Below, in pieces: positions 1 to 17,856 of a stretch of DNA of 19,413 nucleotides. A program made the translations under genes and the position numbers. The notes beneath the pieces are model-generated. The model was not told where the DNA came from and did not search any database. It was given only the letters and a program-made list of their open reading frames with translations. The stretch comes from a virus (Duplodnaviria; Heunggongvirae; Uroviricota; Caudoviricetes), in IMG/VR virus record IMGVR_UViG_2703718769_000016, positions 1-19,413 of that record. One strand, 5' to 3'. Each line of letters begins with the position of its first letter. Position 1 is the first letter of the stretch.

Positions 1-1287
1 TCATCGTCTCGCTCTGTGGGGCATGTATGGGACACTTTCAGTTAACTCCTTATTGAGCAGTTCTATCTGCCCGATATTGTTATCTTTCATCCATGCTCCG
101 TAAACATTGAAAACCATTTGGGCGTTTGCATGTCCCATCTGGTTTGCGATAAAGCTTGGATTAGCTCCCGCCGATAATGCCCAGCAGGCATAAGTATGCC
201 TGGACTGATAGGCTTTCCTGTGCCGTAGTCCCGCCCGTCTCAATGCCGATGCCCATGAGTCTCTGATGGAGTCTGCTTTGTAGTGGTGGCCTGCCTGCTG
301 GCATTTTTTCACCAGTTGCGGATTAAAAACAAATGTGCATTCATGTCTTACGGTGCGTCCGAACTCCCGAAGTTTGACGTCAATTTGATATTGAGTACCA
401 AATCTTGTCATTTCAGCCTGACTTTTCAGGGTATCAACGGCTGGTTGAACAAGATGAATAACACGATCTGTTCCCGCTTCGGTTTTTGGTAGAGTGAACT
501 CACCGAGTTTTGTATAATTACGACGGATAGTCATTGTTTTAGCTTTTAAATCAATATCCTCCCAGGCAAGAGATATCAGCTCACCATGACGAATGCCTGT
601 GTATACTGCTAAAGACCACAGGTTTTTTGTTTGTTGATGGTGGCAAGCATCAATAAAACGAATGAATTCGTCATGTGTGAGCGGATCTGGTTCTGTTCTT
701 GATCTTTTTAATGGTGTCAGACCGTTAAACGGGTTTGATTCTGTGTATCCGTTGTCAGCTGCAAATTGAAACATACCTGCAATTGTCGTCATGTAGTAAT
801 TAACTGTAACTACAGATCGCCCTTTGACAGGAGTTGTCTTGCCGTTCGAGAGATTGTGATACCCGGTCAATAAATCTTTCCTGATAAAGAGTAAATCTTC
901 TTTTGTTACAGATGAAGCCAGTCGATTTTCCCCTATACGAGGGAGCATGTTTCTCACCACAGATTGATACCGATTGAGCGCGTTACCACCTATCTCGATT
1001 TTCTTCAGATCCAGCCATTTTTCGGCAAGTGCCTTAATGGTTATCTCCCTTTTCCCCAGACCGAAGTGTTTCAGATTTGGAGACTCAGGGAACTGCGCAG
1101 CGTAGTCGAAATTCCCCATTCTGATTGCAAAACAAACTGAAGTCCTGAGTTCGCCTGCAATCTTCCGGTTTTTGGCTGTGTCAGGAATACCGAGGTTTTC
1201 TCTGACACGTTTGCCGTTATAGTGAAACCATATGCGGAGTGAGCCGCCATGGTTTTCAACGCCTGTTGGGTATGATGTGTTACTCAT
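1..1287 (-). CDS. int: Phage tyrosine integrase (lambda Int family site-specific recombinase)
   Basis: 428-aa ORF; C-terminal catalytic-type residues (R...HxxR...Y pattern, e.g. RHTYACW, GHANAQMVFNVYGAW); N-terminal arm-binding-like domain; SD GGGAGG upstream of ATG at 1287; sits at the prophage edge next to an excisionase-like gene. Confidence 0.9.
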   Translation of the reverse strand: MSNTSYPTGVENHGGSLRIWFHYNGKRVRENLGIPDTAKNRKIAGELRTSVCFAIRMGNFDYAAQFPESPNLKHFGLGKREITIKALAEKWLDLKKIEIGGNALNRYQSVVRNMLPRIGENRLASSVTKEDLLFIRKDLLTGYHNLSNGKTTPVKGRSVVTVNYYMTTIAGMFQFAADNGYTESNPFNGLTPLKRSRTEPDPLTHDEFIRFIDACHHQQTKNLWSLAVYTGIRHGELISLAWEDIDLKAKTMTIRRNYTKLGEFTLPKTEAGTDRVIHLVQPAVDTLKSQAEMTRFGTQYQIDVKLREFGRTVRHECTFVFNPQLVKKCQQAGHHYKADSIRDSWASALRRAGLRHRKAYQSRHTYACWALSAGANPSFIANQMGHANAQMVFNVYGAWMKDNNIGQIELLNKELTESVPYMPHRARR

Positions 1288-1320
1288 TAAACCTCCCAGA
1301 CGTCCAGGAGCATTAACAGG

Positions 1321-1575
1321 TTAACCGGAACTTGCATTTTTGGCACCTGGTTGTTTCTGGTTTTTTATCCACCGCATAATTGCATCTATGTTGTACAGGC
1401 ATTCACTGTTTGGTTTTGGCTCTCCATCCACAGAGAAGTGGATATATTCCCTTCCTAACATCCATGATGTTCTACGTGCTCGCTCGATAGTGCCTGATTT
1501 TAATCCTGTTGCAGCAATTAAGATGCTTTCAGCGCACCATTCACTGGGTGTTATCTGATAGATAATTTGTTGCAT
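1321..1575 (-). CDS. Putative excisionase / DNA-binding protein (Xis-like)
   Basis: 84-aa ORF immediately upstream of int on the same strand; small basic protein with wHTH-like segment (ITPSEW...SGTIERARR); ORF track starts at a TTG (1590), ATG at 1575 more likely. Functional call is mostly positional. Confidence 0.55.
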   Translation of the reverse strand: MQQIIYQITPSEWCAESILIAATGLKSGTIERARRTSWMLGREYIHFSVDGEPKPNSECLYNIDAIMRWIKNQKQPGAKNASSG

Positions 1576-1632
1576 AGAATTGCCTTGCAACCGCCGCCAC
1601 TATAGCTGGTGGACGGCGATCAGGGTTGAACA

Positions 1633-4116
1633 TTAAAAATCAGCTTGACTCGGGATCAGTTTTTGCCAGATTGCTGACACGTATTTTGCCTGGTAACGCG
1701 CATCGTGCAGGGCGTTATGGCGTTCACCTTCGAATGGAATAGTCGTTCTGGCATCGAAATCTATCACCAGTCCCAGAGCAACCATCGTTCGTACATCACG
1801 ATCGTTGTTGTAGCGCCACGGACAGGGGATCCCCTGTCGTTCATATGAACGGCGTAAAATTGCGTTGTCGAAGTTGGCTCCATTTCCCCACACCTGAACA
1901 AAAAATTCACCGGAGTTTTCGGCGATAAACTCCCTGAACTGCAACAGCGCGTCATCCAACGGGATTTCATTGGTAAGAATGGCGGATTGTGCTTCGCGTG
2001 ACTGTTTCAGCCACCACTTAATGGTGTCCCGATCGATGACTCCGCCTGCGGTTTCCAGATCGATAGTTTTGCTGAATTCTGGTCCCATCTCTCCGGTTAC
2101 CGGATCAAAAAACTTACCGGCTATAGCGTTGACTGGCGCATCAGGATTTTTTCCCATTGTTTCAAGGTCAATCATCAGATGGTGCCACAACCTGCTGGTG
2201 GATGTGACTTCATTATGACCGTTCACCTTAATTAAGGGATTTGCTGTCTCGCCAGTTTCATTATCGCTATCGTGATGCTGATCACCGTCAGCATTCTCCT
2301 TGCACGGATGTTCAGGGCTTTCCTGTTTCTCCGGATTTTTTTCCTGATATTCATCCAGGTTTTCTTCATTAAAGGTGTCCTGATACGTTGCGTCGCCCAT
2401 CACCGCGCCACAGTCAGGGCAGTTACCCCCACCAGTCTGGCCGCAGGAATCGCAGGCTTTTTCGGTTTCCGGTTGTGCTTCTGGCTCGTTTTGTAACGCA
2501 TTTGGGCTGTTTTGTTCCGCTTTCTGGCCGTTCTGTTCCGTTTCTTGCTGGTTCTGGTTCACAGAATCGCGGGTTTCAATCCCCTTAACCCATTTCGGAT
2601 CATTTTGGTCGCTAATCCATTCAACAAACTCTCCGCGAGAGGCAGCCAGTACTTTGTCTGCATCGACAGGATTTTTGGGCAGAATGTTTTTCCGTGCCTC
2701 GTGGAGTTCGGCCCGTAACTTCTCGTACTTCGTATCTATCTGTGACTGAGCATCCAGCGGCTGCGTGTCCTGATGATGTTCAGTTGTGTCCGGTTCCACT
2801 GTTTCAGCCGTTGCCTGCTCATCTGCCATTGCGTCAGATGGTTGAGGTTTTTCTTCATCATCCTTTTTTCCTTCTTCTGTTACACGCTGTGGCATCGGGG
2901 CAGAGGAGCGACCGCAGGCAATGGCCACAATCATCGGGTCGGGGGTAGCGTGGTCTGTTTCAGTCAGTACCCTGTTCAGATATTCAGTGACGTGCGCGGG
3001 GATGACCTCGATACCAATTGGTGCTTCTTTCACGGACGCAACCACGATGGCGCGGGAATAATCCAGCCCACCAGGCATGGCGATGAATTTGTCGCGGAAA
3101 ACAGAAAATGGCGGTTTATTTTCAGCGATAATTTCCTCAATGCGTTTCGCGTGTGCCGGATGAAGGTTATAAATGTCCACGTCCATTGAACGAGCCAGTA
3201 CACCTGTGGCCACATCGCGCTCCAGTGACGTCAGATCGTGGACGAAACCTTCGCCGCGATCGGTAAGAATTCCACCGCCAGCATTAGCACCTGATGGGGT
3301 GCGATTGATTTCAGATACATAATTTCCCTTCGCCCACTCTTTTGTCAGTAATCCCTGATCCAGATAATCAGTTTTCATCCAGATGGATATGAACTTGTCG
3401 AATTCTGCCGGGCTGATACGACGGGTTGCTGCGTGAGTGAATGCTCTGGATACCGACTCCGCCAGTCTGCTCAGATGGTGGTTTGTCAGCTTATCCAGTT
3501 CAGGATGAGAGCGTACAGCTGTGAGGAGGCTCTGGAGGTTACTGTCCTCCATATCCATTTCCATGCGGATCACTGTATTGCGTTGTTCCGGTGTTGCGTG
3601 GTGCCTGTATTTTCCGCCTTCTTCCTTGCCGAAAAAGTAGAGATGCAGGAAACGATGAGTCAGACTGAGAGTGGCGACGGGAATTTCACATTCATGGCAG
3701 TCATCGTTACTGTCCTGGGATTTATTTTTCTCTGCGTTCTCTGGCTGAGCACCGCTTTGTTCATCGTTGTCATTGCTGGCTGTTACAGCAGCTTCGCCGT
3801 TGATGTTGTCATTGAAGGGTATAGCCATCATGGTGATACCATCTTCCCCGCCTTTTTCATAGCGGTTGCAGAATTCAGTATCAAACACGCCTTCCGGTGG
3901 AAGGTCATTCACGACGGGGAAATTTACGCGAACGGGTTTTTTGAAATCATCCTCGTCGTAGCCTGCATCGTCCATGGCTGCAATGCAGCGGGAAACTGCG
4001 ACAGAAAGTTTTCTGGCATCAGCCCAGAAAAAACCGCCTTTGATGCCAAGGCGTTTTCTGACTTTATCGTTTTTTGCTTCGCAGTGTAGTGCAAAAGTCT
4101 GTTTATCAGCGCTCAT
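1633..4116 (-). CDS. Prophage exonuclease, 827 aa, with C-terminal DnaQ-like DEDDh 3'-5' exonuclease domain, internal zinc ribbon and acidic low-complexity linkers
   Basis: C-terminus has motifs DLETMG (Exo I), [11 protein letters not shown] (Exo II), [10 protein letters not shown] (Exo III, DEDDh); [16 protein letters not shown] zinc-ribbon-like motif; long D/E/Q/N-rich segments; occupies the recombination-module position between xis and kil. Confidence 0.75.
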
Positions 4117-4223
4117 TGTATTTAAACCTCTGGCTGGATTAGAATTAGCGGCCCTTTGTCTGATTTCTCCGAATACGGTGACGCAGGGAGAAATCCGGTA
4201 GCCTGCGCTGCCGGATTTTTATT

Positions 4224-4610
4224 TCAGTGGAAGGTTGCCTGGTTTGCTGTTTTGTGAGTTGTTTTTCCCTTTTCGTGCTGGCATTCAGGGCAGTCGCACT
4301 CAGAATTTTCTCTTGCAAACTCAAGAGCCTGCGCCAGTGTATGGATTTGTTGTGCTCCAATGTTGCTTCTGACGACTTCACATGCAGCATGAATATATGG
4401 GCTTGGTGCTTTGCCATTTAACCCACATGAAACCAAACGACTGTCTTTATATTCGTTATTTCCAACTTCTGTAAGCACTGAAAAAGAAAATACAAAGTCG
4501 ATTTTGTATTCTTTGCATATTTTACTGATGCGTTCTGCAATTTCTTTGAGTTCATTTATTGCATCAGGACTGGTTTCGGAAAATATTTCATTTTGCTCAA
4601 GTTCTTTCAT
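4224..4610 (-). CDS. Hypothetical protein (AT-rich accessory gene in the early-left operon)
   Basis: 128-aa ORF, markedly AT-rich (K/E/I/N-rich), C-terminal CDCPEC motif; same strand and spacing as the neighbouring early genes. Confidence 0.5.
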   Translation of the reverse strand: MKELEQNEIFSETSPDAINELKEIAERISKICKEYKIDFVFSFSVLTEVGNNEYKDSRLVSCGLNGKAPSPYIHAACEVVRSNIGAQQIHTLAQALEFARENSECDCPECQHEKGKTTHKTANQATFH

Positions 4611-4684
4611 TTTTCAATTTCCGTTATTGATAACTAATGTAAATTACTGTTTGGTGCATATATTCGAGAGTATTTTATTACTCA

Positions 4685-4906
4685 TTACCATGATTCAGCT
4701 TTTACCGGCAAACCATCACGTCCCAGGAAAACTTTAATCATGCAGTCGGTAATGCATGTTTTTGTCGTGAAGTTACGAATATAGAGTTTTCTCTTTTCAA
4801 TATTGTTTGCTGAAGCGATATATGTCCGACCTTCATGAAGAACATAATCGCCAGGCGTCACGCACTGACGTGGTATTTCATCAGTTCCGAAGTGATGAGC
4901 AATCAT
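4685..4906 (-). CDS. kilR: KilR-like host-killing / cell-division inhibitor protein (73 aa)
   Basis: 73-aa product [35 protein letters not shown]... recognised from memory as Rac prophage KilR-like; SD GGAGAT 6 nt upstream of ATG at 4906; ORF track's longer start (4924) overlaps the SD. Confidence 0.55.
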
Positions 4907-5486
4907 AATTATCTCCATTTTCACAAATGAACTTTGTTGATGCAGTGCCTGGTGCCTCTAGGTGACGTTAACCAGTTAACAATTAACGCCGGAATACATA
5001 AGAGGATACTTACGCCAGTAAAAGACCGCTTTACTGATTTAACTGTTCCGCGTGCGCTTAGCCGCATTCACCGCATCACAAAATTCACTTTAAAAAGGGC
5101 GGCAGAGCAGTCACGGAGTAAAACTGATACCGCCAAACGTCACCAGAAAATTGATAACAGAGGGCGTTGCAGCGGGGTTGTCACTTAAGCGTATGGTCAA
5201 CCTTACAACCCGGTGTCCTCAACGGGGAAGAAATAACCCCGCCATACTTACCGCCGCGCCATTTCGCGGATTGCCACAACCGGAAGCACACGGTCGAAGA
5301 AATCTAACGACAAGCCTTCTAAGGAAAAGACGCCTTCGCCGTGTGCTTTCGTGTTGTGCCCTGACTTTTCAGGGAAATATCCTTTCAGTAAACTGTCAGT
5401 GCCGGATGCTCACCCGTGTCCGGTGCACGTTCTCCCCCTCACCAGTGGATAACTCCAAAACTACTGACAACCCCAGGAGGGTGAAT

Positions 5487-5741
5487 ATGGCAAATATTTA
5501 TAGTCCTGACGAATATTTCAAAATAACTAATCAAAACATCAAAAATATTGTTGCCACTCAACAACTCTTTGGTAAATTACTTGGAGTAATTGCTGCCCGC
5601 ACAGGTTTGACTAATGAACTAAAGGAGATAATTGAATCCAGTGCTGCGACAGAAGAATCGATGTCTGAGCATGTTGAGTATTCAAAGCAGTTTATTCTCA
5701 ACTCAATGTCTTTGGTTCGCATAATTAAAGACCATTCTTAA
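5487..5741 (+). CDS. Hypothetical 84-aa protein, opposite strand to the early-left operon (sieB-position moron)
   Basis: Strong SD (CCAGGAGGG) 5-7 nt upstream of ATG at 5487; AT-rich coding sequence; predicted helical soluble protein; the long upstream extension to 5151 looks non-coding (R/K-rich, no SD). Confidence 0.5.
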   Translation: MANIYSPDEYFKITNQNIKNIVATQQLFGKLLGVIAARTGLTNELKEIIESSAATEESMSEHVEYSKQFILNSMSLVRIIKDHS

Positions 5742-5940
5742 CGCTTAAGAACACTTCGTTTATGAAGCATCCACTCGCATCTGGTGATGTTGTATTTATC
5801 GTAGTTAAATCGCTTTTCTTAATAGCGCGTTTAGCAATCCAGATGCGGGCCTCAGTACCTGCATTTGGTTCCACCTGCTGGAGGCGCTTTGCATCTTCCA
5901 GAAGCAGGGCGATAACGTGTTTTAATTCTGCCTCGTTCAT
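5725..5940 (-). CDS. Hypothetical small protein (71 aa), early-left operon
   Basis: ATG at 5940 lies 1 nt after the stop of the upstream 51-aa ORF (GGTGAATAAAATG), i.e. translationally coupled; ORF track begins it at an upstream GTG (5949). Confidence 0.4.
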   Translation of the reverse strand: MNEAELKHVIALLLEDAKRLQQVEPNAGTEARIWIAKRAIKKSDLTTINTTSPDASGCFINEVFLSVKNGL

Positions 5941-5941
5941 T

Positions 5942-6097
5942 TTATTCACCTGAGTTTCTTTCCAGCCAGCGACGCGCGCCAGCTTCGGTTTTAAACGTTT
6001 TGCTTCTGGTATACGTCATCGCGGTGAACGTACCGTCCTGGTTTGGGAACACGCCGAAAACCAGAGATTCATTGTTGCCAAGATTGAGCATATCCAT
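5942..6097 (-). CDS. Small 51-aa protein, YdaF-like (first gene of the leftward operon)
   Basis: Not in the ORF track (under 60 aa). MDMLNLGNNESLVFGVFPNQDGTFTAMTYTRSKTFKTEAGARRWLERNSGE; SD GAGG 6 nt upstream of ATG at 6097; length and position match Rac ydaF from memory. Confidence 0.4.
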   Translation of the reverse strand: MDMLNLGNNESLVFGVFPNQDGTFTAMTYTRSKTFKTEAGARRWLERNSGE

Positions 6098-6264
6098 GTT
6101 GACCTCATTTACCCTTAACGCCGGGTAGCGGAACTAAAAACCTGCTGCGCTGTTATACAAAGTGTTCCCGCCGTCATGTTCATACGCCTCGGGCTGGCTA
6201 CTTAACCCCTGACCACTGCCGGGTAACTCGAAGTATTGCCCTGCATTCTGTGAAGCGGGGTGGG

Positions 6265-6320
6265 TTGTAATGAATATAAGAATATTTAGTTTTGCCGTCA
6301 AGTTGAATATAAATATTTTT
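6265..6320. promoter_or_regulatory. OL-like operator/promoter region (repeated TGAATATAA sites)
   Basis: TGAATATAAG at 6271-6280 and TTGAATATAAAT at 6303-6314; the same 12-mer recurs at 7031-7042 on the other side of the repressor gene. Confidence 0.35.
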
Positions 6321-6346
6321 AAGATAAAAGGCCGGCAAAGCCGACC
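6318..6346 (-). terminator. Rho-independent terminator downstream of the repressor gene
   Basis: Minus-strand hairpin GGTCGGC-TTT-GCCGGCC (one G-U pair) followed by TTTTATCTT. Confidence 0.5.
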
Positions 6347-6370
6347 TCTGATTACAGGGAAAAGCGGGAG

Positions 6371-7015
6371 CTAGAGGCTGAACTGAACACCTTTTGCTAC
6401 AGCAACGATGTTACATTCCGGTGTAAGTAAGGATGATTGATAGCGTGGGTTAAGGGGGGCTAAGTACACGAGCTTTCCATCAATAACTAATTTTTTTATA
6501 GTCATGGATGGTTCGTTTGTGAGTGGATCTGGGACTATTACTGCGACGATGCTACCATTTTTATATTTTTCGCCAGGCCTCATGATCACTGTGGCTCCAA
6601 CTGGAATGCTTGGGGATCCTGATGGATTGTGCATAGTATCATCAGGCATTGAAACGGCAAAATCTCCCTCCTTGACATCAAAGAATGTGGTGATCCTGTC
6701 GACATTTCCCATAGTTTTCTCTCCTTTTAATATTAGGAAAGAAATCGCTTCTCCCCAAGAAAGGTATGGGATTTGGGTACCTGGATTTTTCTGCACAAGG
6801 GATGATTCAGGTGATGATACTCCATACAGGAGATAGGACTCAGTAGTGCCTAGTGCTAGGGCTAATTTACTAAGAGCTTTGCTACCTGGTTCGTTTAGAT
6901 CTTTCTCCCAGTATCCTATTGTTACCCCAGTTACGCCAGAAAGCTTGCCAAGTTCAACTTGGGTCAGACCTTTGTCTTTTCTGAGTTTCTTAAGCCTAAT
7001 GCCAAGGCTTTCCAT
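6371..7015 (-). CDS. CI-like prophage repressor (N-terminal HTH_XRE, C-terminal S24 LexA-like peptidase domain)
   Basis: N-terminal LTQVELGKLSGVTGVTIGYWEKD helix-turn-helix; C-terminal domain with S24-type fold features; SD GGGAGA upstream of ATG at 7015; divergent from a Cro-like gene. Confidence 0.85.
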   Translation of the reverse strand: MESLGIRLKKLRKDKGLTQVELGKLSGVTGVTIGYWEKDLNEPGSKALSKLALALGTTESYLLYGVSSPESSLVQKNPGTQIPYLSWGEAISFLILKGEKTMGNVDRITTFFDVKEGDFAVSMPDDTMHNPSGSPSIPVGATVIMRPGEKYKNGSIVAVIVPDPLTNEPSMTIKKLVIDGKLVYLAPLNPRYQSSLLTPECNIVAVAKGVQFSL

Positions 7016-7024
7016 TATTTTCTC

Positions 7025-7114
7025 CCGCGAATTGAATATAAATTATTTTAGATTGTATTGACCTAAAAAAAATTACCCTTTAATCTAAAAATACTTAGTT
7101 TTTAAGGGGGCGAA
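7025..7114. promoter_or_regulatory. OR-like operator region with divergent promoters (pR-like for the cro-like gene, pRM-like for the repressor)
   Basis: TTGAATATAAAT at 7031-7042 (identical to the 6303-6314 site); TTGACC at 7057-7062 then 17 nt then TAATCT; SD AAGGGGG before ATG 7115. Confidence 0.4.
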
Positions 7115-7342
7115 ATGCGAGTTGATGAACTTGTCCAGTTTTTTGGTTCTGTCCAAAGAGTCGCTGATTTTTATGGGGTAACCCGAGAAGCTATATACAT
7201 GTGGCGTAAGCGTCCCGGCGAAATAGTTCCCAAGGGGAGGGCTGCTGAAGCAGTTGCATACTCCAAGGGAAAATTATCGTTGAACCCAGAACTTTACAAA
7301 AAGAAGGATAACACCTCGAACGAAAGGAAAAATGATTCATGA
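7115..7342 (+). CDS. Cro-like HTH regulator (YdaS family)
   Basis: 75-aa protein with HTH (FGSVQRVADFYGVTREAIYMWRKR); divergently transcribed from the CI-like repressor; stop overlaps the next gene's ATG (ATGA). Confidence 0.7.
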   Translation: MRVDELVQFFGSVQRVADFYGVTREAIYMWRKRPGEIVPKGRAAEAVAYSKGKLSLNPELYKKKDNTSNERKNDS

Positions 7343-7776
7343 AAATCAAACATGAGCACATCCGCATGGCGATGAATGCGTGGCTGCTTTATCCGAGGGT
7401 AGGGCGCAAAAAAATCGCTGATGATATAGCGACAGCATATTTTGAGCTTGAAATGACTTATCCACCAATGCATGACACCTCTACGACAGAGGGTATTGGA
7501 TTGAACATACAAAATATTTTTCGCTGGCTTGAAAAGGATACGCCTGATGCTGTTGAAAAAATTCAGGCACTAATTCCGGCTATCCTGACTGTTCTTCCGC
7601 GTGAACTGCGTTATCACCTCAGTATTTTTGACACTGTTGAGCGCCGTGCATTACTGGCGGCGCAGGAAGCGTTAAGTACGGCAATTGATGCACATGATGA
7701 TGCAGTCCAGGCCGTTTACCGGAAAGCGTATTTCAGCGACGGCGGGTCATCCGGCGAGTCTGTTGTGGTGCATTGA
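7339..7776 (+). CDS. YdaT-like (CII-analogue) early regulatory protein
   Basis: 145-aa ORF translationally coupled to the cro-like gene; family assignment by position and recalled similarity only. Confidence 0.5.
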   Translation: MKIKHEHIRMAMNAWLLYPRVGRKKIADDIATAYFELEMTYPPMHDTSTTEGIGLNIQNIFRWLEKDTPDAVEKIQALIPAILTVLPRELRYHLSIFDTVERRALLAAQEALSTAIDAHDDAVQAVYRKAYFSDGGSSGESVVVH

Positions 7777-7862
7777 TATTTATGCCAGACCCCTGCTGAT
7801 TCTGTTGATTGGGGAATCACAGATTATCACCAGAGGATGGTTCGTCACAAGGTGAGGCAATT

Positions 7863-8873
7863 ATGGCCGCATTACCATACATGCAACTTTACATAGCTGA
7901 TTACCTGGCGGACACCATGCATTTGTCCGCAGAGGAGCACGGTGCGTATTTGTTGCTGATGTTCAATTACTGGCAAACAGGGAAGCCAATACCCAAAAAC
8001 AGACTGGCAAAAATCGCCCGTCTGACTAACGAGCGATGGGCTGATGTTGAACCATCCTTGCGGGAGTTTTTTTGCGATAACGGCGACGAATGGGTGCATC
8101 TTCGGGTTGAGGAAGATCTGGTATCAGTCAGGGAAAAATTAACCAAAAAATCAGCCGCCGGAAAAGCATCTGTTCAAGCCAGAAGAAGCAGAAAGGAAGC
8201 ATATGTTCAAACAAAACAAGAGAGAGATTTAACAGGTGTTCAAACAAATGTTGGTGTTGTGTTTGAACATGACGCAAACACAAAAGCAACTAATAAAGAT
8301 ACAGATCTAAAAGAATTAAACCCCACACATAACGCGCGCATGCGCGAGAGTGCTCCAACCGGTGAGTCGAATGGTGCGTCGTTGCAGACAGCCGAACCTG
8401 AATACCTGGACGGCCTGAGCGAACCGATCGGGAAATTTTCGATGACCACTGTCTGGCAGCCGTCGCCGGATTTTCGACAACGGGCAGCAGTGTGGGGTAT
8501 GGCTCTGCCTGAGCCGGAATTTACACCTGCTGAGCTTGCTGCATTCCGGGATTACTGGATGGCGGAGGGGAAGGTTTTCACGCAGGTTCAGTGGGAGCAG
8601 AAATTTGCCCGCCACGTGCAGCACGTCAGGGCACAGGTAAAACCAGTCAGCAAGGGGGTAAGCCATGCAGCATCAGGTGGCACGGCATCACGGGCAGTTC
8701 AGAAAATCCGGGCAGCACGAGAACAGTGGGAACGTGAAAACGGATTTATCAGCAACGGAAACGGCCTGGAAGCTGTGGGAACTTATGGGGGAGGTTTATT
8801 CAAACCGCTGGACTCAGAAGAACGGGGCCGCACCTTCGAAGCTCTGGATTGCCCAGATTGGCGCGATGACTGA
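7863..8873 (+). CDS. Replication initiation protein, DUF1376 (YdaU-like) N-domain with DnaT-like C-terminal region
   Basis: SD AAGGTGAGG then ATG at 7863; N-terminus MAALPYMQLYIADYLADTMHLSAEEHGAYLLLMFNYW typical of DUF1376; central low-complexity linker whose DNA carries iteron-like repeats. Confidence 0.7.
   Translation: MAALPYMQLYIADYLADTMHLSAEEHGAYLLLMFNYWQTGKPIPKNRLAKIARLTNERWADVEPSLREFFCDNGDEWVHLRVEEDLVSVREKLTKKSAAGKASVQARRSRKEAYVQTKQERDLTGVQTNVGVVFEHDANTKATNKDTDLKELNPTHNARMRESAPTGESNGASLQTAEPEYLDGLSEPIGKFSMTTVWQPSPDFRQRAAVWGMALPEPEFTPAELAAFRDYWMAEGKVFTQVQWEQKFARHVQHVRAQVKPVSKGVSHAASGGTASRAVQKIRAAREQWERENGFISNGNGLEAVGTYGGGLFKPLDSEERGRTFEALDCPDWRDD
8170..8275. repeat. Iteron-like repeats (TGTTCAAAC core), candidate replication origin inside the initiator gene
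   Basis: tgttcaagc at 8172, tgttcaaacaaa at 8204 and 8238 (direct, 32-34 bp spacing), inverted copy tgtttgaaca at 8262; flanked by an A-rich stretch. Confidence 0.35.
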
Positions 8874-9327
8874 ACAGCAAATCCGGCTGGTCTGCCGTCA
8901 GTGCATGGACCGCTGCCGGGCGGGTGAAACGTGGCCCCCGGACCTGGCTGAGTTTGTTGCGCTGATTTCGGAGAGTGGGGCAAATCCATTTGGTCTTACG
9001 GTGGATGCCGTGATGGAGGAGTACCGTCGCTGGCGCAATGAATCCTGGCGGTACGACGGGAGTGATAAATACCCGTGGCCACAGCCTGTGCTGTACCACA
9101 TTTGCCTCGAGATGCGTTCAAAGGGGATTGAGCGCCAGATGACCGAAGGGGAGTTAAAACGGCTTGTGGAAAGGCAGCTGACGAAATGGGCAAAGCATGT
9201 TGGTAATGGCCTCAGTGTTCCGCCAGTCCGGCGACAACTGGCAGCACCCAAACGCCCGCCAGGGCCAACGCCAATTGAATTGCTGAAACAGGAATATGAG
9301 CGCCGGAAGGCGGCCGGTTTTGTCTGA
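8665..9327 (+). CDS. Lambda P-like replication protein (helicase loader family); start uncertain
   Basis: C-terminal two-thirds aligns by eye to lambda P ([14 protein letters not shown] / PFLPSPGQFVAWC; YPWPQP / YPWKSN). Strong SD AAGGGGG before ATG 8665 but that start overlaps the upstream gene by 208 nt; alternatives are ATG 8785 and ATG 8866 (ATGACTGA overlap with the upstream stop). Confidence 0.6.
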
Positions 9328-9361
9328 GTTGAGAAGTAATTTTTACCGGGAGGAAAATTTA

Positions 9362-10075
9362 ATGGAAACCGTATTTGACGCACTGAAAGCACTGAAAAAA
9401 GCCTCGTCGCACGAGATTGCAGCCCGTCTTGAAATCAGCCGTGACGATGCTGTCAACGAGCTGTGGAAGCTGAAACGCCGTGGTGAAGCTGATAACAAGG
9501 GGTCGATGTGGTGGCTGACGAGTGAGGCAACTGAAATGGCCACAAAAACCACTGCGGAGATGCTGATTAACGCAATTGAACAGCATGGTCCTCAGTCGGC
9601 TGACGAACTGGCGTTAATGTTCGGGATTACCTCCCGCCGGGCGAATTCAACGCTGGCAATGGCAATAAGCAAAGGTCGTCTGATTCGAGTAAATCAGAAC
9701 GGTAAATTTCGTTACTGCCTGCCGGGCGATAATTTACCAGCAGAGCCGAAAGCTGCATCGGTAACGGAAACTGCTGGTAAAGCCTTTCCTCAGCCAGCAG
9801 GTGTTGCGTTACCAGTCCGGGAAGCGGAAACACAGGAAGAAATTAAAACTGAAAGTGTGGCGGTCACAGTGCAGTCACAGCCGTCGTTCACCAGAAAGCA
9901 TCCGGATAGTCTGATTTTACCATCGCTGCATGTGGCTAACCGCGAACTGCGCCGGGCAAAAGGTCAGGTTCAGAAGTGGGAGCGAGTCTGTGCTGCGCTG
10001 CGTGAGCTGAACAAGCACCAGGATATTGTTCGACAGATTACTGATTCATCCTGTTGTGTTGCATCAGACAAGTGA
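9362..10075 (+). CDS. Hypothetical protein with two winged-helix-like segments
   Basis: SD GGGAGGAAAA before ATG 9362; 237 aa; wHTH-like stretches ([23 protein letters not shown] and [29 protein letters not shown]). Confidence 0.6.
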
Positions 10076-10090
10076 TTGCAGGGGACGCTG

Positions 10091-10594
10091 ATGGCAAGAG
10101 TATTTACACCAGAAGAGCGGGAAAAAATTAAGGGGCAGGTTGTTGAACTCGTACGCCAGAGCGGTCGCGAGACGTTACGGCAACTGGAAGCTAAAACAGG
10201 TGCAACAAGATATCTGGTGATCGTTCTCGCCAGAGAGCTGGTTGCCAGTGGTGATGTATACAACTCTGGCTACGGGTTATTTCCGTCTGAACAGGCTCGT
10301 AAAGACTGGCAAAACGCCCGCAAAAAACTTTCAAGGGAAAAGGCGAAGAAACCGGCTGTGGTTGATCCGGACCTTATCTGGTCATTACCAGACGGAGAAA
10401 TACGCCGCTACGACAGGCGCCTGAACATAATCTGTCGCGAGTGCCGGAATAGTGAAGTTATGCAGCTAGTGCTGGCGTTTTATCAGGGGGTGGGGTCAGG
10501 AGGTGGTGCTGTGAGTGAAATTAGCTATCAGGCTTCAATTTCCGCTGGCATTCGCATCAAAGGAGAGGAGCATGGAAATAAAACCAGAAGATGA
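10091..10594 (+). CDS. Hypothetical prophage protein
   Basis: 167-aa ORF; ATG 10091 follows GGGGA; ORF track start at 10076 is a TTG; same strand and tight spacing with neighbours. Confidence 0.5.
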   Translation: MARVFTPEEREKIKGQVVELVRQSGRETLRQLEAKTGATRYLVIVLARELVASGDVYNSGYGLFPSEQARKDWQNARKKLSREKAKKPAVVDPDLIWSLPDGEIRRYDRRLNIICRECRNSEVMQLVLAFYQGVGSGGGAVSEISYQASISAGIRIKGEEHGNKTRR

Positions 10595-10928
10595 GTTAAG
10601 TAATATTGTTTTATTTCCGGTAAAAGAGGATGACCCACGTAATCAGGTTAATTTTCTTTATGAGCCATCGGAAAGACCATATTGTCATCACGCCTCTGTC
10701 CGGGTTGACGAAAAAGAGCGTCAGGTCCGCTGTAAAATCTGCGGTGCAGTTGTGGAGCCATTTGACTGGATGCCCTCTGTGGCGAAAAGAGAAACCAGAC
10801 TGGCAGATGATGTAAGGCTCTTGCGCCAGGAGGAACGGGAAAGGCGGAGAAATGTAGAAAAGCTAATTCAGATTGAGCGTAACGCGAAAGCGCGGATACG
10901 CAGGGCGGCAAAATCAAGAACTGAATAA
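10572..10928 (+). CDS. Hypothetical protein with zinc-finger-like motif (C/H-x...CxxC)
   Basis: SD AAAGGAGAGGAG before ATG 10572; PYCHHASVRVDEKERQVRCKICGAV motif; basic coiled-coil-like C-terminus. Confidence 0.5.
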   Translation: MEIKPEDELSNIVLFPVKEDDPRNQVNFLYEPSERPYCHHASVRVDEKERQVRCKICGAVVEPFDWMPSVAKRETRLADDVRLLRQEERERRRNVEKLIQIERNAKARIRRAAKSRTE

Positions 10929-11021
10929 TTAAATTTAGCACTGTTAAAAATTTAATCCTTAACCGGAGGGATTTCTGCACCCTCAGAACATCAGGAGGCC
11001 GTTCGAAATGGCGGTAGTGAA

Positions 11022-11204
11022 ATGCGAAAATTCAAAATAATTATTGAAACGGGAATAGCTGGTGGAGATTTTGAGGATGTATTCGAAGTAGATGATGACG
11101 CAACACCTGATGAAATTCATGACGAAGCAAAAGAAATTTTCTTTAACTACTGCAATTACTCATACCACGAAATAAAAGATGAAGAGGAAGGACAAAATGG
11201 CTGA
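11022..11204 (+). CDS. Small acidic hypothetical protein (60 aa)
   Basis: ORF with acidic composition; stop overlaps the next ATG (ATGGCTGA). Confidence 0.4.
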   Translation: MRKFKIIIETGIAGGDFEDVFEVDDDATPDEIHDEAKEIFFNYCNYSYHEIKDEEEGQNG

Positions 11205-11373
11205 TTTTGGTTCAACTAAATATAACGCCAGTTTTGAAGAATGGCATGAACTGTTAATGGATTATGCAGAGTTACGCGGTGGAAGTGCCGCTGATGCTGA
11301 AGCATGGCGTGATGATTATGAAGCAGGGAAAACTCCGGTCGAAGCATATTGTGATGAGTGGGGCGATGAATGA
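11197..11373 (+). CDS. Small acidic hypothetical protein (58 aa)
   Basis: SD GAGGAAGGA before ATG 11197; coupled to neighbours at both ends. Confidence 0.45.
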   Translation: MADFGSTKYNASFEEWHELLMDYAELRGGSAADAEAWRDDYEAGKTPVEAYCDEWGDE

Positions 11374-11729
11374 GCGAGATTAATTATCAGGAAGGGCATG
11401 AAAAGGCAGGGCAGGCAAAACCAGTGGCATGGCGATATCGCTACGTGAAAAAAGGCGTTACAGACTTTCAGGGGAAGCAGTGGGCTGGTGACTGGAAATA
11501 TGTCCAGACAAAAGAAGATTGTAACGACAGACCGAACTATGAAATTCAGGCGTTATTCACGGCACCGCCAGCCCCGGTGACATCAGAAGGACTAGTTAAA
11601 GCCGTGTGCTTTTATGAACAGGTAAAGCGTGAGAATCCACCAGTCGAAACAGGTGCATGGAAAGATGCTGTTGACTGGGTACTCAAAGAGGCTTGCCAGG
11701 CTGTAAGCATTAGCAACAAAGGGGGGTGA
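11370..11729 (+). CDS. Hypothetical prophage protein (119 aa)
   Basis: ATG overlaps the upstream stop (ATGA); plausible globular composition. Confidence 0.55.
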   Translation: MSEINYQEGHEKAGQAKPVAWRYRYVKKGVTDFQGKQWAGDWKYVQTKEDCNDRPNYEIQALFTAPPAPVTSEGLVKAVCFYEQVKRENPPVETGAWKDAVDWVLKEACQAVSISNKGG

Positions 11730-11732
11730 GTA

Positions 11733-11909
11733 ATGCGTGTGGCATGTATCAGTTTGTTACCGTACCCGACTCGTTTTTTGGCTTCTGCGCTAATTGCAAA
11801 GCCGCGTGTCCTGATGGATGACAGCATCATCCCGACACCAAAGCGCCGCCATACCGGTATTGCAGCGGCACGACGAGCAGCAAAGAAACGCAGGAGAGCA
11901 AAACGATGA
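11733..11909 (+). CDS. Small basic protein (58 aa), not in the ORF track
   Basis: Strong SD AGGGGGGTGAG before ATG 11733; C-terminal KRRHTGIAAARRAAKKRRRAKR; stop overlaps the next ATG. Confidence 0.3.
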   Translation: MRVACISLLPYPTRFLASALIAKPRVLMDDSIIPTPKRRHTGIAAARRAAKKRRRAKR

Positions 11910-12100
11910 AAAACCGTAAAGCAAAAATTCTGTTAGCTCGCAGAAACGGTGTTGGTGTCTGGCGGTGGGTGAGGATTAGTAACAGACGGGTGAGGTTGAC
12001 GGGGTGTTGCGGTGTTATGGGGCACAGTTGTTGCAAAAAGCCCAGCGCGGCGCAAAACCGCTGGAAAAACCACTGTTATCTGCGCACTAAAGGAGAGTGA
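11906..12100 (+). CDS. Questionable small ORF (64 aa) over a G/T-rich repeat region
   Basis: SD AGGAGAG before ATG 11906 and exact stop-start abutment with neighbours, but W/R/C-rich translation and GGGTGAGG repeats suggest it may be non-coding. Confidence 0.2.
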   Translation: MKNRKAKILLARRNGVGVWRWVRISNRRVRLTGCCGVMGHSCCKKPSAAQNRWKNHCYLRTKGE

Positions 12101-12101
12101 G

Positions 12102-12617
12102 ATGGCGTTAACACACCGCGAACTCTGTCAGATTGCGTACAAGTTCCTTAAGCGCAACGGGTTCAAGGTTTGCTTTCATGACCGCTTTATAGCTGTAACC
12201 AGTACCGGAGAACAGCCAGATGCTATGGGATTCAGAAATTCAGCATCATGCCTGATAGAGGCGAAGTGTTCTCGTGCTGACTTGTTGGCAGATAGAAAAA
12301 AGCGTTTCCGTAAAAATCCCTCTCTTGGCATGGGCGACTGGAGATTCTTTATTAGTGAGCCGGGAATTATTTCAATTGAGGATTTACCACCTGGCTGGGG
12401 ATTACTTCACGTTGTTAACGGAAGAGTACGGAAAGTACATGGGTGGCCCAAGGGTAATTGCTGTTGGGGTAATCCTGACGATAAGCCATTTACTGGAAAT
12501 AAGCAGGTTGAATGCGATTACATGTTGTCTGCATTAAGGCGCATGGAGTTGAGAGGGCACCTTAATGAAATATATGACGGTGTAATTGTTAATAAGAAAG
12601 AAGGAAACGCGGCATGA
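12102..12617 (+). CDS. Putative PD-(D/E)XK-fold nuclease-like protein (MmcB-like)
   Basis: SD AAAGGAGAG before ATG 12102; motif pattern D...(IEAK) consistent with a PD-(D/E)XK core (PDAMGF...[12 protein letters not shown]); 171 aa. Confidence 0.45.
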
Positions 12618-12958
12618 CGACTTTTACCAGAGAGCAGTTAATAGCTCACGCAGAGGAGACTATTGAAGCACAGAGACTGTGCATACCGGGCACAATCGAC
12701 AATGACATCATCCGCACATATAAGATGGATATTGCTGTTCTGGAAATCGCACTGGCATCGCTGGCAGCAGAGCCAGCCGGTAAATTGCATGAATACAAAC
12801 CAGTGGGACATCAGCGTCTGGTCGACGAGTTAACCATGCTGGTAAAGCAGTTAACCTGGCAACTGAGGAAAACGAAGCCGGACTGTAAATTGCCGGGTAA
12901 GGCGATGGACTACCTGAAGCGAAACGGACTGATAAGTGCAGAGGATGTTTTACGATGA
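12614..12958 (+). CDS. Hypothetical prophage protein (114 aa)
   Basis: ATG overlaps the upstream stop (ATGA); helical composition. Confidence 0.55.
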
Positions 12959-13038
12959 CCTGGCATGGGGCATTCACAACGGTAGGGATTGCAATGGCGG
13001 TGGTGCTGATTGTGTATTCGATTTGTCGCTGGGGGTAA
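12955..13038 (+). CDS. Putative 27-aa hydrophobic peptide ([27 protein letters not shown])
   Basis: ATG overlaps the stop of the preceding gene (ATGA); single predicted transmembrane helix; too short for the ORF track. Confidence 0.3.
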
Positions 13039-13149
13039 AAACGATTTGCGGGGAAAGGATAGTTAAGTAGAATTGCTGCGGGTGCTTGAGGCTATCTGTC
13101 TCAGGCATGAACACCAAAAGGCAGATAGAGAAAAGCCCCAGTTAACATT

Positions 13150-13215
13150 ACGCGTCCGGCAAGACGCTTAACATTAATCTGAGGCCATATCTATGCTCTA
13201 CACACGTAGGTTAGC
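13150..13215 (-). ncRNA. Predicted Sok-like antisense RNA of the hok locus (approximate position)
   Basis: Inferred from hok-family organisation; candidate minus-strand promoter (TTGCCT then 17 nt then TAACCT) would place a transcript antisense to the upstream in-frame ATG and SD at 13181-13195. Confidence 0.25.
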
Positions 13216-13249
13216 CTCTTACGTGCCGAAAGGCAAGGAGAAGCAGGCT

Positions 13250-13405
13250 ATGAAGCAGCAAAAGGCGATGCTAATCGCCCTGATCGTCATCTGTTTAACC
13301 GTCATTGTGACGGCACTGGTAACGAGGAAAGACCTCTGCGAGGTACGAATCCGAACCGGCCAGACGGAGGTCGCTGTCTTCACAGTCTACGAACCTGAGG
13401 AGTAA
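13250..13405 (+). CDS. hok: Hok/Gef-family type I toxin (51 aa membrane peptide)
   Basis: MKQQKAMLIALIVICLTVIVTALVTRKDLCEVRIRTGQTEVAVFTVYEPEE: hydrophobic TM helix plus conserved RKxLCE...EVA motif of the Hok family; SD AAGGAG; an in-frame upstream ATG at 13193 with its own SD (mok-like leader); structured 3' region with fold-back hairpin and terminator. Confidence 0.8.
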   Translation: MKQQKAMLIALIVICLTVIVTALVTRKDLCEVRIRTGQTEVAVFTVYEPEE

Positions 13406-13475
13406 GAGACCAGGCGGGGGAGAAATCTCCCGCCACCTCTGATGTGTCAGGCATCCTCAACGCACCCGCACTTAA

Positions 13476-13495
13476 CCCGCTTCGGCGGGTTTTTG
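13476..13495 (+). terminator. Rho-independent terminator of the hok transcript
   Basis: CCCGC-TTCG-GCGGG followed by TTTTT; preceded by hairpin GGCGGGGGAGA-AAT-CTCCCGCC at about 13414-13434. Confidence 0.6.
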
Positions 13496-13506
13496 CATTA
13501 GTCTGG

Positions 13507-13545
13507 TTGACAAAAACAGGAAAATGCGAAAATATAAGGTTTACG
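13507..13545 (+). promoter_or_regulatory. Candidate sigma70 promoter for the two-gene insert
   Basis: Perfect -35 TTGACA at 13507-13512; A/T-rich -10 candidates (AAATAT / TATAAG) 17-20 nt downstream; lies between the hok terminator and the 13571 ATG. Confidence 0.35.
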
Positions 13546-13570
13546 AATTCTAAAAAAAGCGAAACTTGAA

Positions 13571-14221
13571 ATGAATGAAAATCAGTTAGCTCCTTGTTGG
13601 GAATTTCAACCTTATCTTGCTGAAAGCAATGTTCGCCAGTTGTTGGCGGAGATCGCTAACGTACTTGAGCAGTTGTACTATCATAAGCACGTATTAGACA
13701 GCAACTGGTCTGAAGGTGTAAGGGCTTATGATTGGGTCAGAAACCATCTTATTCAAAATGAAGGCGCAATTCCTGGTCTTAAGATGATTTCCAAGGGGTT
13801 GGACTATGTAGTTGCTTTAAATAAAGTTCCGCTACAATTTACCAAAGATTGCATTAATAACCCCAAAAAGAAACATCGCCTGCGTCGAAATAAAGTAGAG
13901 CATGAGCAGCTTTCATTGTTTGGTGATGTTGAGGCTGAGCAAGATATTACATGGCGAGTCATAGCGGAGCCATTTTTATCCGAAGAGGGAGATGGTGAAT
14001 TAGAGTCCACACTGCCTCGTTGGGAGGTGGCTCTTGTTGGGTTTAATATCTATGGTGCTCAGATTAGTATGGTTTCTCATCAATCTACAGCATCAATGCC
14101 ACTTATGCCCCTTGACGGTAACACACTCCCTGGCGAAGCGGAGATTAATAAGGTGTCTCTTCGTCGGCGTACGAAGGATAAAATTTTGGATGTGAGCAGT
14201 AATGGAACATCAGGTGAATAA
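13571..14221 (+). CDS. Hypothetical 216-aa protein, candidate toxin/effector partner of the HTH-M78 peptidase
   Basis: Long ORF in a low-GC insert; no motif recognised by eye; 3' end overlaps the start of the downstream HTH/peptidase gene by 20 nt (operon). Confidence 0.6.
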   Translation: MNENQLAPCWEFQPYLAESNVRQLLAEIANVLEQLYYHKHVLDSNWSEGVRAYDWVRNHLIQNEGAIPGLKMISKGLDYVVALNKVPLQFTKDCINNPKKKHRLRRNKVEHEQLSLFGDVEAEQDITWRVIAEPFLSEEGDGELESTLPRWEVALVGFNIYGAQISMVSHQSTASMPLMPLDGNTLPGEAEINKVSLRRRTKDKILDVSSNGTSGE

Positions 14222-15305
14222 CTTCACTGAGTATCGAGGCGATAAGCTCAAACTAGCAAGAATGGCTATTGGGCTTTCATGTGAAGAGTTGGCCGAAAAA
14301 ATTGGCAAAACAAAACAATTCGTTAGCAAATTGGAGAAGGGATTTAGGCCATCAGAGCAATGCCTGGAGTTAATAGCCTCAGCTCTTATGATTAAGCCCG
14401 ATTTTCTATTTACTGAGCGAAAATATGCTCTGGAAAGCGATGTTTGCCATTTTCGGAGTAAGAAGTCCAGGACTCAAACGCTGACTAATAGTGTCTTGGC
14501 TAGGGCTGAGATTCTTAATATTATAATTTCTGCTGTTGAAGGTGAAATCGAATTCCCTGATGTCAACATACCAGAGCACCCAGGAACTGAATTACTTACC
14601 CCGAATGATATTGAGCGAGTGGCAGAAGATTGTCGCCGTGCATGGAATCTAGGTCTTGGCCCTATATCATCAATGGTGAAATTGGCGGAGAGTTTGGGGG
14701 TAATCGTTGCGCATGTTACGGGAGTCGATGATCGTGTTGATGCATTCACTGTTCACAATAACAGGCCTGTTATTATCAGGAACAATGTAAAAAAAAGCAT
14801 ATGTAGATTTCGCTCTGATTTAGGTCATGAGTTAGGGCATTTAGTAATGCATGAGGGCATAACTACTGGTGATAAACTTACGGAATCACAAGCTGATCAC
14901 TTTTCTAGCGCCTTATTGGTTCCTAGGCTATCTTTCATTAAAGAATTTCCACGAATACGAGGTAAGCAATTCGATTGGAGTGCTCTGGTTGAATTTAAGC
15001 TTAGATGGAAAATTAGCCTTAAAATGTGTATTTATCGAGCCAGTGCATTAGGACTATTGACCCAGGAACAGGCAAGAACTGGCTATATGCATCTTAATTC
15101 TAGAGGGTACACGAGAGTTGAACCAGGTGATGAACTTTTGCGCCACGAAGAACCAAGTATGCTGTCCGAAGCGATTGACATGCTGGATGATGCAACTTGG
15201 TTAAGAATTCTTATGAAAACTGGCTTGAGTCAAGATTTAATTCGTGAGTTGTTCTCCATCAATCGACCTATTACAAATCCAAGAAATATTTTTCAGATTG
15301 TTTGA
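14202..15305 (+). CDS. Xre-family HTH fused to ImmA/IrrE-type (M78, COG2856) zinc metallopeptidase
   Basis: N-terminal HTH (LKLARMAIGLSCEELAEKIGKTKQFVSKLEKG); HEXXH zinc-binding motif HELGHLVMHE about 140 residues later; 367 aa, typical for HTH-COG2856 fusions. Confidence 0.85.
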   Translation: MEHQVNNFTEYRGDKLKLARMAIGLSCEELAEKIGKTKQFVSKLEKGFRPSEQCLELIASALMIKPDFLFTERKYALESDVCHFRSKKSRTQTLTNSVLARAEILNIIISAVEGEIEFPDVNIPEHPGTELLTPNDIERVAEDCRRAWNLGLGPISSMVKLAESLGVIVAHVTGVDDRVDAFTVHNNRPVIIRNNVKKSICRFRSDLGHELGHLVMHEGITTGDKLTESQADHFSSALLVPRLSFIKEFPRIRGKQFDWSALVEFKLRWKISLKMCIYRASALGLLTQEQARTGYMHLNSRGYTRVEPGDELLRHEEPSMLSEAIDMLDDATWLRILMKTGLSQDLIRELFSINRPITNPRNIFQIV

Positions 15306-15310
15306 GCATA

Positions 15311-15335
15311 CCCGCTACGGCGGGTTTTGTTTTTT
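15311..15335 (+). terminator. Rho-independent terminator after the HTH-M78 gene
   Basis: CCCGC-TAC-GGCGGG followed by TTTTGTTTTTT, 6 nt after the stop; near-identical core to the hok terminator. Confidence 0.65.
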
Positions 15336-15407
15336 CCGGGCTTTTTGGTTTACAATCCGCACGCCAGCCTGAACAACTGGCACCTGCTGCGCCAGCAGAG
15401 AAAAACG

Positions 15408-15686: not shown

Positions 15687-15687
15687 C

Positions 15688-16737: not shown

Positions 16738-16749
16738 AAGGGGGTATTG

Positions 16750-17794: not shown

Positions 17795-17816
17795 ATCGCG
17801 TATGTTTCGTATAAAT
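17778..17816 (+). promoter_or_regulatory. Candidate pR'-like late promoter
   Basis: TTGCAA (17778-17783) then 17 nt then TATGTT (17801-17806); TATAAAT at 17810-17816 as an alternative -10. Confidence 0.25.
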
Positions 17817-17856
17817 CTGATATTTTGCCGATTTTGTACGCGATGGCAAAGTAAGA

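Follow-up and report, generated by a model that had tools for sequence, protein, structure and literature searches.

The region considered here lies in a stretch of 19,413 nucleotides (hereafter the window) that makes up positions 1 to 19,413 of the virus record IMGVR_UViG_2703718769_000016 (Caudoviricetes), and that is a lambdoid, Rac/Qin-like prophage of Escherichia coli inserted beside yecE. With a probability that we put at about 75%, and judging from sequence, the segment surrounding its repressor gene is an immunity switch of the lambda CI/P22 C2 family, presenting a new immunity type with about five predicted operators of 18 bp: OR1, OR2 and OR3 in the right operator region (OR), between the repressor and a cro-like gene, and OL1 and OL2 in the left operator region (OL), beyond the repressor. 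As far as can be predicted, most attributes of a CI/C2-type switch are present, namely a repressor with helix-turn-helix (HTH) and S24 domains, a divergent cro, several dyads at the rightward promoter (PR) and the repressor-maintenance promoter (PRM), and an operator, OL1, positioned over the -10 hexamer of the leftward promoter (PL). A first-pass annotation of the same DNA had pointed to an identical 12-mer on both sides of the repressor gene, with a third, related copy, and had proposed these as OL/OR-like operators. All three of the sites do coincide with predicted operators (OR3, OL2 and OL1), but the operator unit turns out to be an 18-bp dyad and not the 12-mer, of which 8 of 12 bases (ATATAAAT) are inside the operator while TTGA is flank. 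The set was also incomplete, as OR1 (7083-7100) and OR2 (7061-7078), the sites expected to block PR, had been overlooked because they read ATCTAA and ACCTAA, and not ATATAA.

Predicted operators and promoters and their arrangement

The operator model comes from relatives of the window repressor, of which some are 67-69% identical (one from Salmonella, one from a read-archive assembly), and more than 25 loci are at 40-53% identity (Yersinia, Arsenophonus, Xenorhabdus, Proteus, Rahnella, Kosakonia, Serratia, Enterobacter and others). Repressor-cro spacers were taken from 21 distant, non-redundant loci, none of them from E. coli, and subjected to unsupervised, palindrome-constrained expectation-maximization, which converged from many seeds on AACTAAGTTAACTTAGTT. 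The family operator is an 18-bp palindrome, A(A/T)CTAAGTTAACTTAG(A/T)T, with T4, A5 and A6 the most conserved positions, and its window versions are A/T-richer. When the 19.4-kb window was scanned with this independent position weight matrix (PWM), OR1, OL1 and OR3 came out as ranks 1-3 and OR2 as rank 5. Among 2000 local shuffles of the OR spacer, none contained three sites of at least 3 bits, and none reached the score of OR1. With the refined model the same layout is found at about 22 loci, the OR sites being placed, counted from the repressor start codon, at approximately +21, +46 and +70, and the two OL sites 33-36 bp from each other. In two E. coli relatives (L001 and L003), the homologues of the five sites are precisely the five top matches in 4-7 kb. 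It is only the clustering of the sites that is informative, as the CTAA-N6-TTAG core, with at most one mismatch allowed, is not enriched across the window (7 found vs 5.6 expected). Two other PWM matches in the window, at 10923-10940 and 10856-10873, score 5-10 bits; they are located where a coding region ends and resemble background. An initial reading of the dyads as 20 bp long, with OR composed of two sites 47 bp apart, was abandoned, as the relatives and P22 show 18-bp units and a weak middle site.

The arrangement of the operators with respect to the promoters is conserved as well. The frame common to the relatives is O3, 4 bp, TTGACC, 17 bp and TAATAT, with the last operator beginning within the -10 hexamer. 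In the window OR3 is 4 bp upstream of the PR -35, as it is in 20 of the 24 relatives, and its core, ATATAAATTATTTTAG, is the most conserved element of the region, invariant in all alleles, even in those whose repressors are 67-69% identical. Most relatives have a site at the OR2 offset, +25 from OR3, and in L001-L003 the homologous site scores 10.6-15.4 bits. PR itself falls below the threshold of a generic promoter scan because its -10 matches the consensus at only 3/6 positions, and so family conservation was used instead, the conserved layout being TTGACC/TTGATC, a 17-bp spacer and TAATAT/TAATCT. As to PRM, a -10 at 7040..7035, where the relatives have TAGNTN, would put the start near 7028, the centre of OR2 at about -41.5 and that of OR3 at about -16.5; the lambda equivalents, taken from coordinates, are about -42 and -19. 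The cro-like open reading frame diverges from the repressor gene, 99 bp from its start codon.

On the other side of the repressor gene, PL is the top promoter-like match in the interval 5900-7400 (10/12), OL1 is 86% identical to OR1 over 21 nt (repeat family D2), and OL2 is located between the PL -35 and the terminator of the repressor gene (Table 1). The terminator, proposed in the first-pass annotation to stand between the repressor stop and the left 12-mer, was confirmed by folding at 6327-6349; its stem, GAGGUCGGC-UUU-GCCGGCCUU, followed by UUUUAUCUU, dominates the fold (-16 kcal/mol, z = -2.4), and the hairpin is retained in the relatives, with substitutions in both stem and loop. A consensus terminator scan of the region did not list this hairpin, which folding revealed.

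Table 1. Positions in the window of the predicted operators, promoters, genes and RNA elements.
Feature	Positions	Strand	Sequence or match	Remarks
OR1	7083-7100		ATCTAAAAATACTTAGTT; top match in window, 20.5 bits (independent PWM), 21.8-22.6 bits (refined)	overlaps PR -10 and start region
OR2	7061-7078		ACCTAAAAAAAATTACCC; rank 5, 6.1 bits (independent PWM), 5-7 bits overall	weak, in PR spacer
OR3	7036-7053		ATATAAATTATTTTAGAT; rank 3, 14.3 bits (independent PWM), 20-24 bits (refined PWMs)	
PR	7058..7086	+	-35 TTGACC 7058-7063, 17-bp spacer, -10 TAATCT 7081-7086	predicted to drive cro
Candidate PRM -10	7035..7040	-	TATATT	within right 12-mer; placed by geometry
OL1	6274-6291		ATATAAGAATATTTAGTT; rank 2, 16.0 bits (independent PWM)	overlaps PL -10
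OL2	6307-6324		ATATAAATATTTTTAAGA	weak/degenerate; assigned solely by positional homology with OL2 of relatives
PL	6273..6301	-	-35 TTGACG 6301..6296, 17-bp spacer, -10 TATATT 6278..6273	predicted
Intrinsic terminator hairpin	6327-6349	-	9-10 bp, G+C-rich; U-tract 6318-6326	3' of repressor stop
Immunity repressor, 214 aa	6371..7015	-	HTH_3 + Peptidase_S24	CI/C2 type
cro-like gene, 75 aa	7115..7342	+	Pfam P22_Cro, E 2.6e-9	
YdaT-family gene	7339..7776	+	Pfam YdaT_toxin, E 1.2e-10	CII equivalent
PL leader, non-coding module	6098-6266	-		85-95% identical in ~3,400 E. coli genomes beside different immunity regions
DUF1391/YdaF-like gene	5942-6097	-		left of repressor, downstream of PL
DicF antisense small RNA	5097-5148	-	Rfam RF00039, 76.7 bits	leftward operon as in Qin dicB operon
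sok antitoxin RNA	13080-13255	+	Rfam RF01794, 117 bits	

A further argument comes from the co-variation of the sites with the repressor. Where residue 30 of the repressor is Gly, as in the window, 28 of 82 half-sites have A at position 3, compared to 1 of 86 where it is Asp. This contrast favours the view that the repressor itself reads these sites, and it makes the ATATAA half-sites of the window legitimate variants. It is highly improbable, in our view, that the sites are bound chiefly by some other protein (Cro only, YdaT, IHF, Fis or H-NS) and not by the S24-type repressor. Such a possibility is suggested by the A/T-rich nature of the DNA, favoured by nucleoid proteins, by the sharing of repressor operators with Cro in lambdoid switches, and by the protection of the same spacer by both PaaR2 and YdaS in prophage CP-933P (PMC8630535). 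It is countered not only by the co-variation with residue 30 but also by the sites being symmetric dyads of 18 bp with TAA at the core, which suits an HTH dimer of the P22 C2 type (PMC5175364), and by the fact that the YdaT-type motif, TTGATTN6AATCAA, is located elsewhere (7332-7349) and not in these sites.

Sequences, conservation of the layout, motif statistics and the co-variation of protein and site are what is observed; from them we infer binding, promoter roles, cooperativity and PRM activation as follows. Dimers of the P22-C2-like repressor would bind the 18-bp dyads. Occupation of OR1, over the -10 of PR, and of OR2, in its spacer and touching the -35, would keep cro and ydaT off, while the repressor bound at OR2 would activate PRM and that bound at OR3, over the likely -10 of PRM, would repress its own synthesis; Cro probably uses the same sites as the repressor. 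On the left side, OL1 would block PL, the presumed promoter of the DUF1391 gene, DicF and kilR. OL2 would be a weak auxiliary site just upstream of the PL -35, in need of cooperative help from OL1; being 33 bp from OL1, it may add cooperativity or join contacts between OL and OR.

Several points weigh against an immunity switch of this design. The PR -10, TAATCT, and the proposed PRM -35, GGTCAA, fit the consensus poorly, and OR2 is weak in the window. The Gly30/Asp30 contrast is drawn from few independent lineages, and the PWMs were trained on sites that are themselves predicted. A literature search with protein accessions and operator strings found nothing relevant, and no reports of binding, footprints, transcription starts or expression for this repressor or its close relatives. 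OL2 measures -1.3 to +3.3 bits against an AT-rich background (P = 0.08 in local shuffles), and its core is altered in other alleles, to ATCTAG (CTAG) in UTAK-23 and A35 and to ATGTAA in O111:H8, so that OL2 may be decaying or non-functional.

The repeated 12-mer: operator, coincidence or promoter element

The exact 12-mer, TTGAATATAAAT, is indeed present twice in the window, both times on the plus strand, at 6303-6314 and at 7032-7043, the latter copy having been placed one base too low (7031-7042) in the first-pass annotation, and the two copies bracket the repressor gene (6371..7015, minus strand) as described. The similar flanking contexts ascribed to the two copies are exact at the left copy, but at the right copy they are only found after a shift by 1 nt (TATTTT, not TTTTT). 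The right 12-mer consists of TTGA and the first 8 bases of OR3, and the left one of TTGA and the first 8 bases of OL2, while the third, related copy, TGAATATAAG, found at 6271-6280 as noted, is the left half of OL1.

How far is the repeat beyond chance? Low-complexity AT sequence had been named as an explanation to be checked by shuffling, and the outcome is that the shared 12-mer is above chance, though not overwhelmingly so. In dinucleotide-preserving shuffles of both flanking regions an exact shared 12-mer has P = 0.002 when the full left spacer is used, and P = 0.011 when the left region is restricted to its 81% A+T part, and therefore the repeat is real and modestly non-random. A search of the window for the 12-mer with up to two mismatches returned only the two exact copies and, given the expectation (2 found vs 2.2 expected), is uninformative. 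In the O111:H8 allele (97% identical) the sequence reads TTGAATGTAAAT, with G in place of A, breaking the identity, and further alleles have GGGAATCTAAAT or similar; thus the exact identity is lineage-specific and is not a conserved property. The lineage of the window carries, in both OL sites, a change of C to A at operator position 3 along with changes in the flanks (compared to L001-L003, L005, L052 and L053), as a result of which OL1, OL2 and OR3 all read (T)TGAATATAA, while other alleles read AATCTAAA. Short-patch conversion from OR3, selection on promoters and drift are all candidates for the origin of this shared sequence.

Could the identity be an A/T-rich coincidence, the right copy belonging to a real operator and the left copy (OL2) being non-functional or vestigial, for example A/T-rich DNA trailing the repressor terminator or DNA upstream of PL? 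We consider this unlikely, although the left site does give it some substance. In the window, OL2 is the weakest site (6.2 bits, rank 6, or 10.8 bits, rank 4, when the model is built from Gly30-type loci only, both scored against the base composition of the window), and at its lower estimate on an AT-rich background (-1.3 bits) and with the shuffle value given above it is indistinguishable from the local background. The nearest allele breaks the identity, others are mutated at core positions, 4 bases of the 12-mer fall beyond the operator, and the shuffle probabilities of the shared 12-mer are only those just cited. Against coincidence, some 15 loci of several genera have a second site upstream of the PL -35, at 33-36 bp from OL1 and scoring 12-19 bits; the homologues of OL2 in two E. 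coli alleles (L001/L003) score 14.6 bits; and the left half-site, ATATAAAT, is the same as in the invariant OR3.

Another possibility is that (T)TGAATATAA is mainly a promoter element, a TATATT -10 hexamer on the minus strand, selected for the strength of PRM (7040..7035) and PL (6278..6273). TATATT at 6278..6273 is the -10 of the top promoter match, the C to A change in the window OL1 turns the TAGATT of other alleles into TATATT at this very place, and the right copy supplies a -10 where a lambda-like PRM geometry expects it. Still, the proposal is compatible with an operator role, operators overlapping -10 hexamers being the norm in this class of switch, and other observations make it rather doubtful as the main explanation: the left 12-mer has no usable -35, the sequence 17 bp upstream being CGGCCT of the terminator stem, and it is the full 18-bp dyads that are conserved, not the hexamers alone. 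Taking the sites as operators, the earlier statement that they define the immunity specificity of the prophage is a reasonable inference.

Comparison with P22, lambda, CP-933P and the Qin and Rac prophages

The immC region of P22 is the closest in design. The repressors share the HTH_3 and S24 architecture, and Cro in the window belongs to the P22_Cro family. In both systems the dyads are 18 bp long and have TAA at their core, and of the 18 positions of the family consensus, ATCTAAGTTAACTTAGAT, 14 are the same in the consensus published for P22, ATTTAAGATATCTTAAAT (PMC5175364). Both have a 7-bp gap between OR3 and OR2, with the PR -35 composed of the last three bases of the gap and the first three of OR2. 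Within OR, the centre-to-centre spacings are 25/22 bp in the window, the P22 values being 25/23 bp and the lambda values 23/24 bp. The recognition helices, in contrast, are different (SNVAISQ in P22, TGVTIGY in the window), as is operator position 3, T in P22 and C or A in the window family, and so an immunity different from that of P22 is expected. The half-site ATTTAAG, the TTAA core and the C2 helix, which mark the P22 immunity type (PMC5175364), are not those of the window, whose half-sites read AT(C/A)TAA(A/G). Other differences are that only two OL sites were detected in the window, compared to OL1-3 of P22, that the window repressor gene has a Shine-Dalgarno leader, and that the analogue of CII is YdaT and not C1. 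Overall, the geometry is that of the P22 switch, and the specificity is probably different.

The likeness to lambda is in the divergent repressor and cro genes, in the three-site OR with a spacing of about 23-25 bp, in the OL at the leftward early promoter beyond the repressor, and in the predicted geometry of PRM, with OR2 near -42. The differences are considerable. The operator sequence is unrelated, the repressor is 24% identical to lambda cI, rexAB and the N/nut system are absent from the window, the distance between OL and OR is about 790 bp compared to 2.4 kb, and, by prediction, the strong site is OR3 and the weak one OR2.

An example of a different kind is presented by prophage CP-933P of E. 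coli O157:H7, in which a divergent spacer of about 97-99 bp contains PR, PRM and several 18-bp palindromes, and PL has OL sites (PMC8630535); the window has a similarly short spacer and is predicted to share this layout. YdaT of CP-933P is an equivalent of CII (PMC8630535; PMC9986795), and its binding site, TTGATTN6AATCAA, is situated at the 3' end of the cro-like gene (PMC9986795). In the window, too, a YdaT gene follows cro, and at 7332-7349 there is a candidate YdaT site, ATGATTCATGAAAATCAA, which could belong to an analogue of the promoter for repressor establishment (PRE); it has one mismatch to TTGATTN6AATCAA, is the sole match in the window with at most one mismatch, and spans the cro stop and the ydaT start, the same place as site OM of CP-933P. 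In these respects the switch is of the YdaT type. The repressor side is different. In CP-933P, lambda CI is replaced by PaaR2, followed by the paaA2-parE2 toxin-antitoxin genes (PMC9986795), the half-site is GTTTAGTAA, and four inverted repeats are reported. The window repressor, judged by its domains and by the nearest solved structure (P22 C2), is not of the PaaR2/RacR type, and it is followed by a terminator and no toxin-antitoxin genes. Cro of the window is placed in the P22_Cro family by its Pfam match, while the switch of CP-933P has YdaS.

A third set of counterparts are the dicA/dicC/dicBp region of Qin and the racR/ydaS/ydaT region of Rac, in which the order is the same as in the window: repressor, leftward promoter, a ydfA/ydaF-like (DUF1391) gene and DicF. 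In Qin, the N-terminal domain of DicA is P22-C2-like, and the protein represses dicBp, the analogue of PL (PMC3441716; bioRxiv 10.1101/2023.04.14.536235). DicA (135 aa) and RacR are, however, shorter than the window repressor (PMC3441716; bioRxiv 10.1101/2023.04.14.536235), DicA's C-terminal portion resembles RovA/SlyA and not C2, and the DicA operator, Oc, TTGTTAGTCATAACTAACAA, has the TTAG...CTAA orientation reversed compared to the window. The window thus combines a C2-like S24 repressor, a YdaT-type equivalent of CII and a left operon of the Qin/Rac type.

The repressor, the left operon and the spread of the module

The repressor matches HTH_3 over residues 8-62 (E 8e-12) and Peptidase_S24 over residues 110-206 (E 1e-10), is about 31% identical to P22 C2, phage 21 cI and 434 cI, and its N-terminal domain matches the P22 C2 structures 1adr/2r1j. 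The recognition helix, GV(T/S)(G/D)V..GYWEKD, is kept in all the relatives, among which Val31 is invariant; it aligns with Val33 of P22 C2, the residue that packs against the TTAA core of the operator (PMC5175364).

The S24 domain differs from those of lambda cI and P22 C2. The catalytic Ser of these two (Ser149 in lambda cI) is replaced by Thr, the window sequence reading DDTM (residues ~126-129) where the others have GNSM/GDSM, and the Ala-Gly cleavage site is missing (residues ~90-92 of the window repressor), with EA-I (GEAISFL) in place of QA-G or SA-G (VQAGMFS), while the Lys of KKL is retained. When aligned with lambda cI and P22 C2, the protein therefore lacks the set expected for RecA-stimulated self-cleavage (Ala-Gly together with the Ser/Lys dyad). 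The closer half of the family, as far as about 50% identity, shares both the Thr and the Ala-Ile, while more distant members retain DSM, two of them also QAG. This suggests that the repressor cannot be inactivated by RecA and may be insensitive to RecA/SOS. A more tentative idea is that the subfamily, while keeping the whole P22-like OR/OL switch, represents SOS-blind CI proteins in which the S24 fold serves only for oligomerization, with induction by an antirepressor or by flipping of the Cro switch, and with residue 30 setting the preference at position 3.

As in Rac and Qin, the left arm of the prophage encodes an integrase, an excisionase, a RecE-like exonuclease, kilR and the DicF RNA. 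Downstream of PL, the leader module (6098-6266) is shared with Rac of E. coli K-12, where it is found between racR and ydaF, and it may be a leader RNA element. Yersinia, Kosakonia, Kluyvera and Arsenophonus have its core, AAGUAGC..GGCGUAUGAA.., as well (3251-3343 in L007, 1417-1509 in L017, 2206-2298 in L027 and 2283-2375 in L011), and changes that appear, by eye, to be compensatory are seen in its stems (CCCCA/UGGGG, CCCGA/UCGGG and CCGGUG/CACCGG). No similarity was found to the PL region of HK022 (putL) when a put-type RNA was considered, the leader has no Rfam match, its single-sequence stability is ordinary (z = +0.5), and RNAalifold gave no consensus on a mixed alignment. The repressor strand of the Arsenophonus nasoniae locus (L011) carries the core twice (454-539 and 2283-2375); one copy is downstream of the repressor, the other is about 1 kb upstream of it, and the pair may reflect tandem or mosaic prophage modules. 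In the right arm of the window, the sok match indicates a toxin-antitoxin locus of the hok/sok type.

As to the distribution of the module, the window prophage is 99.9% identical to one in strain FHI_NMBU_11, and among 5,426 complete E. coli genomes 474 carry the immunity module, in most cases in the form of an allele about 86% identical, while the repressor subfamily is also found in Salmonella, Yersinia and Arsenophonus. The immunity type, so far uncharacterized, is common in pathogenic E. coli, including prophages of O157:H7, O111 and O55, and for it we now have a testable operator map of five predicted sites, three promoters and one terminator. As the PL operon includes DicF and KilR, which affect cell division and toxicity, the strength of OL would matter for the physiology of the host. 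The arrangement is otherwise a textbook one, and the map shows to what extent a layout of the P22 type can be conserved while specificity drifts.

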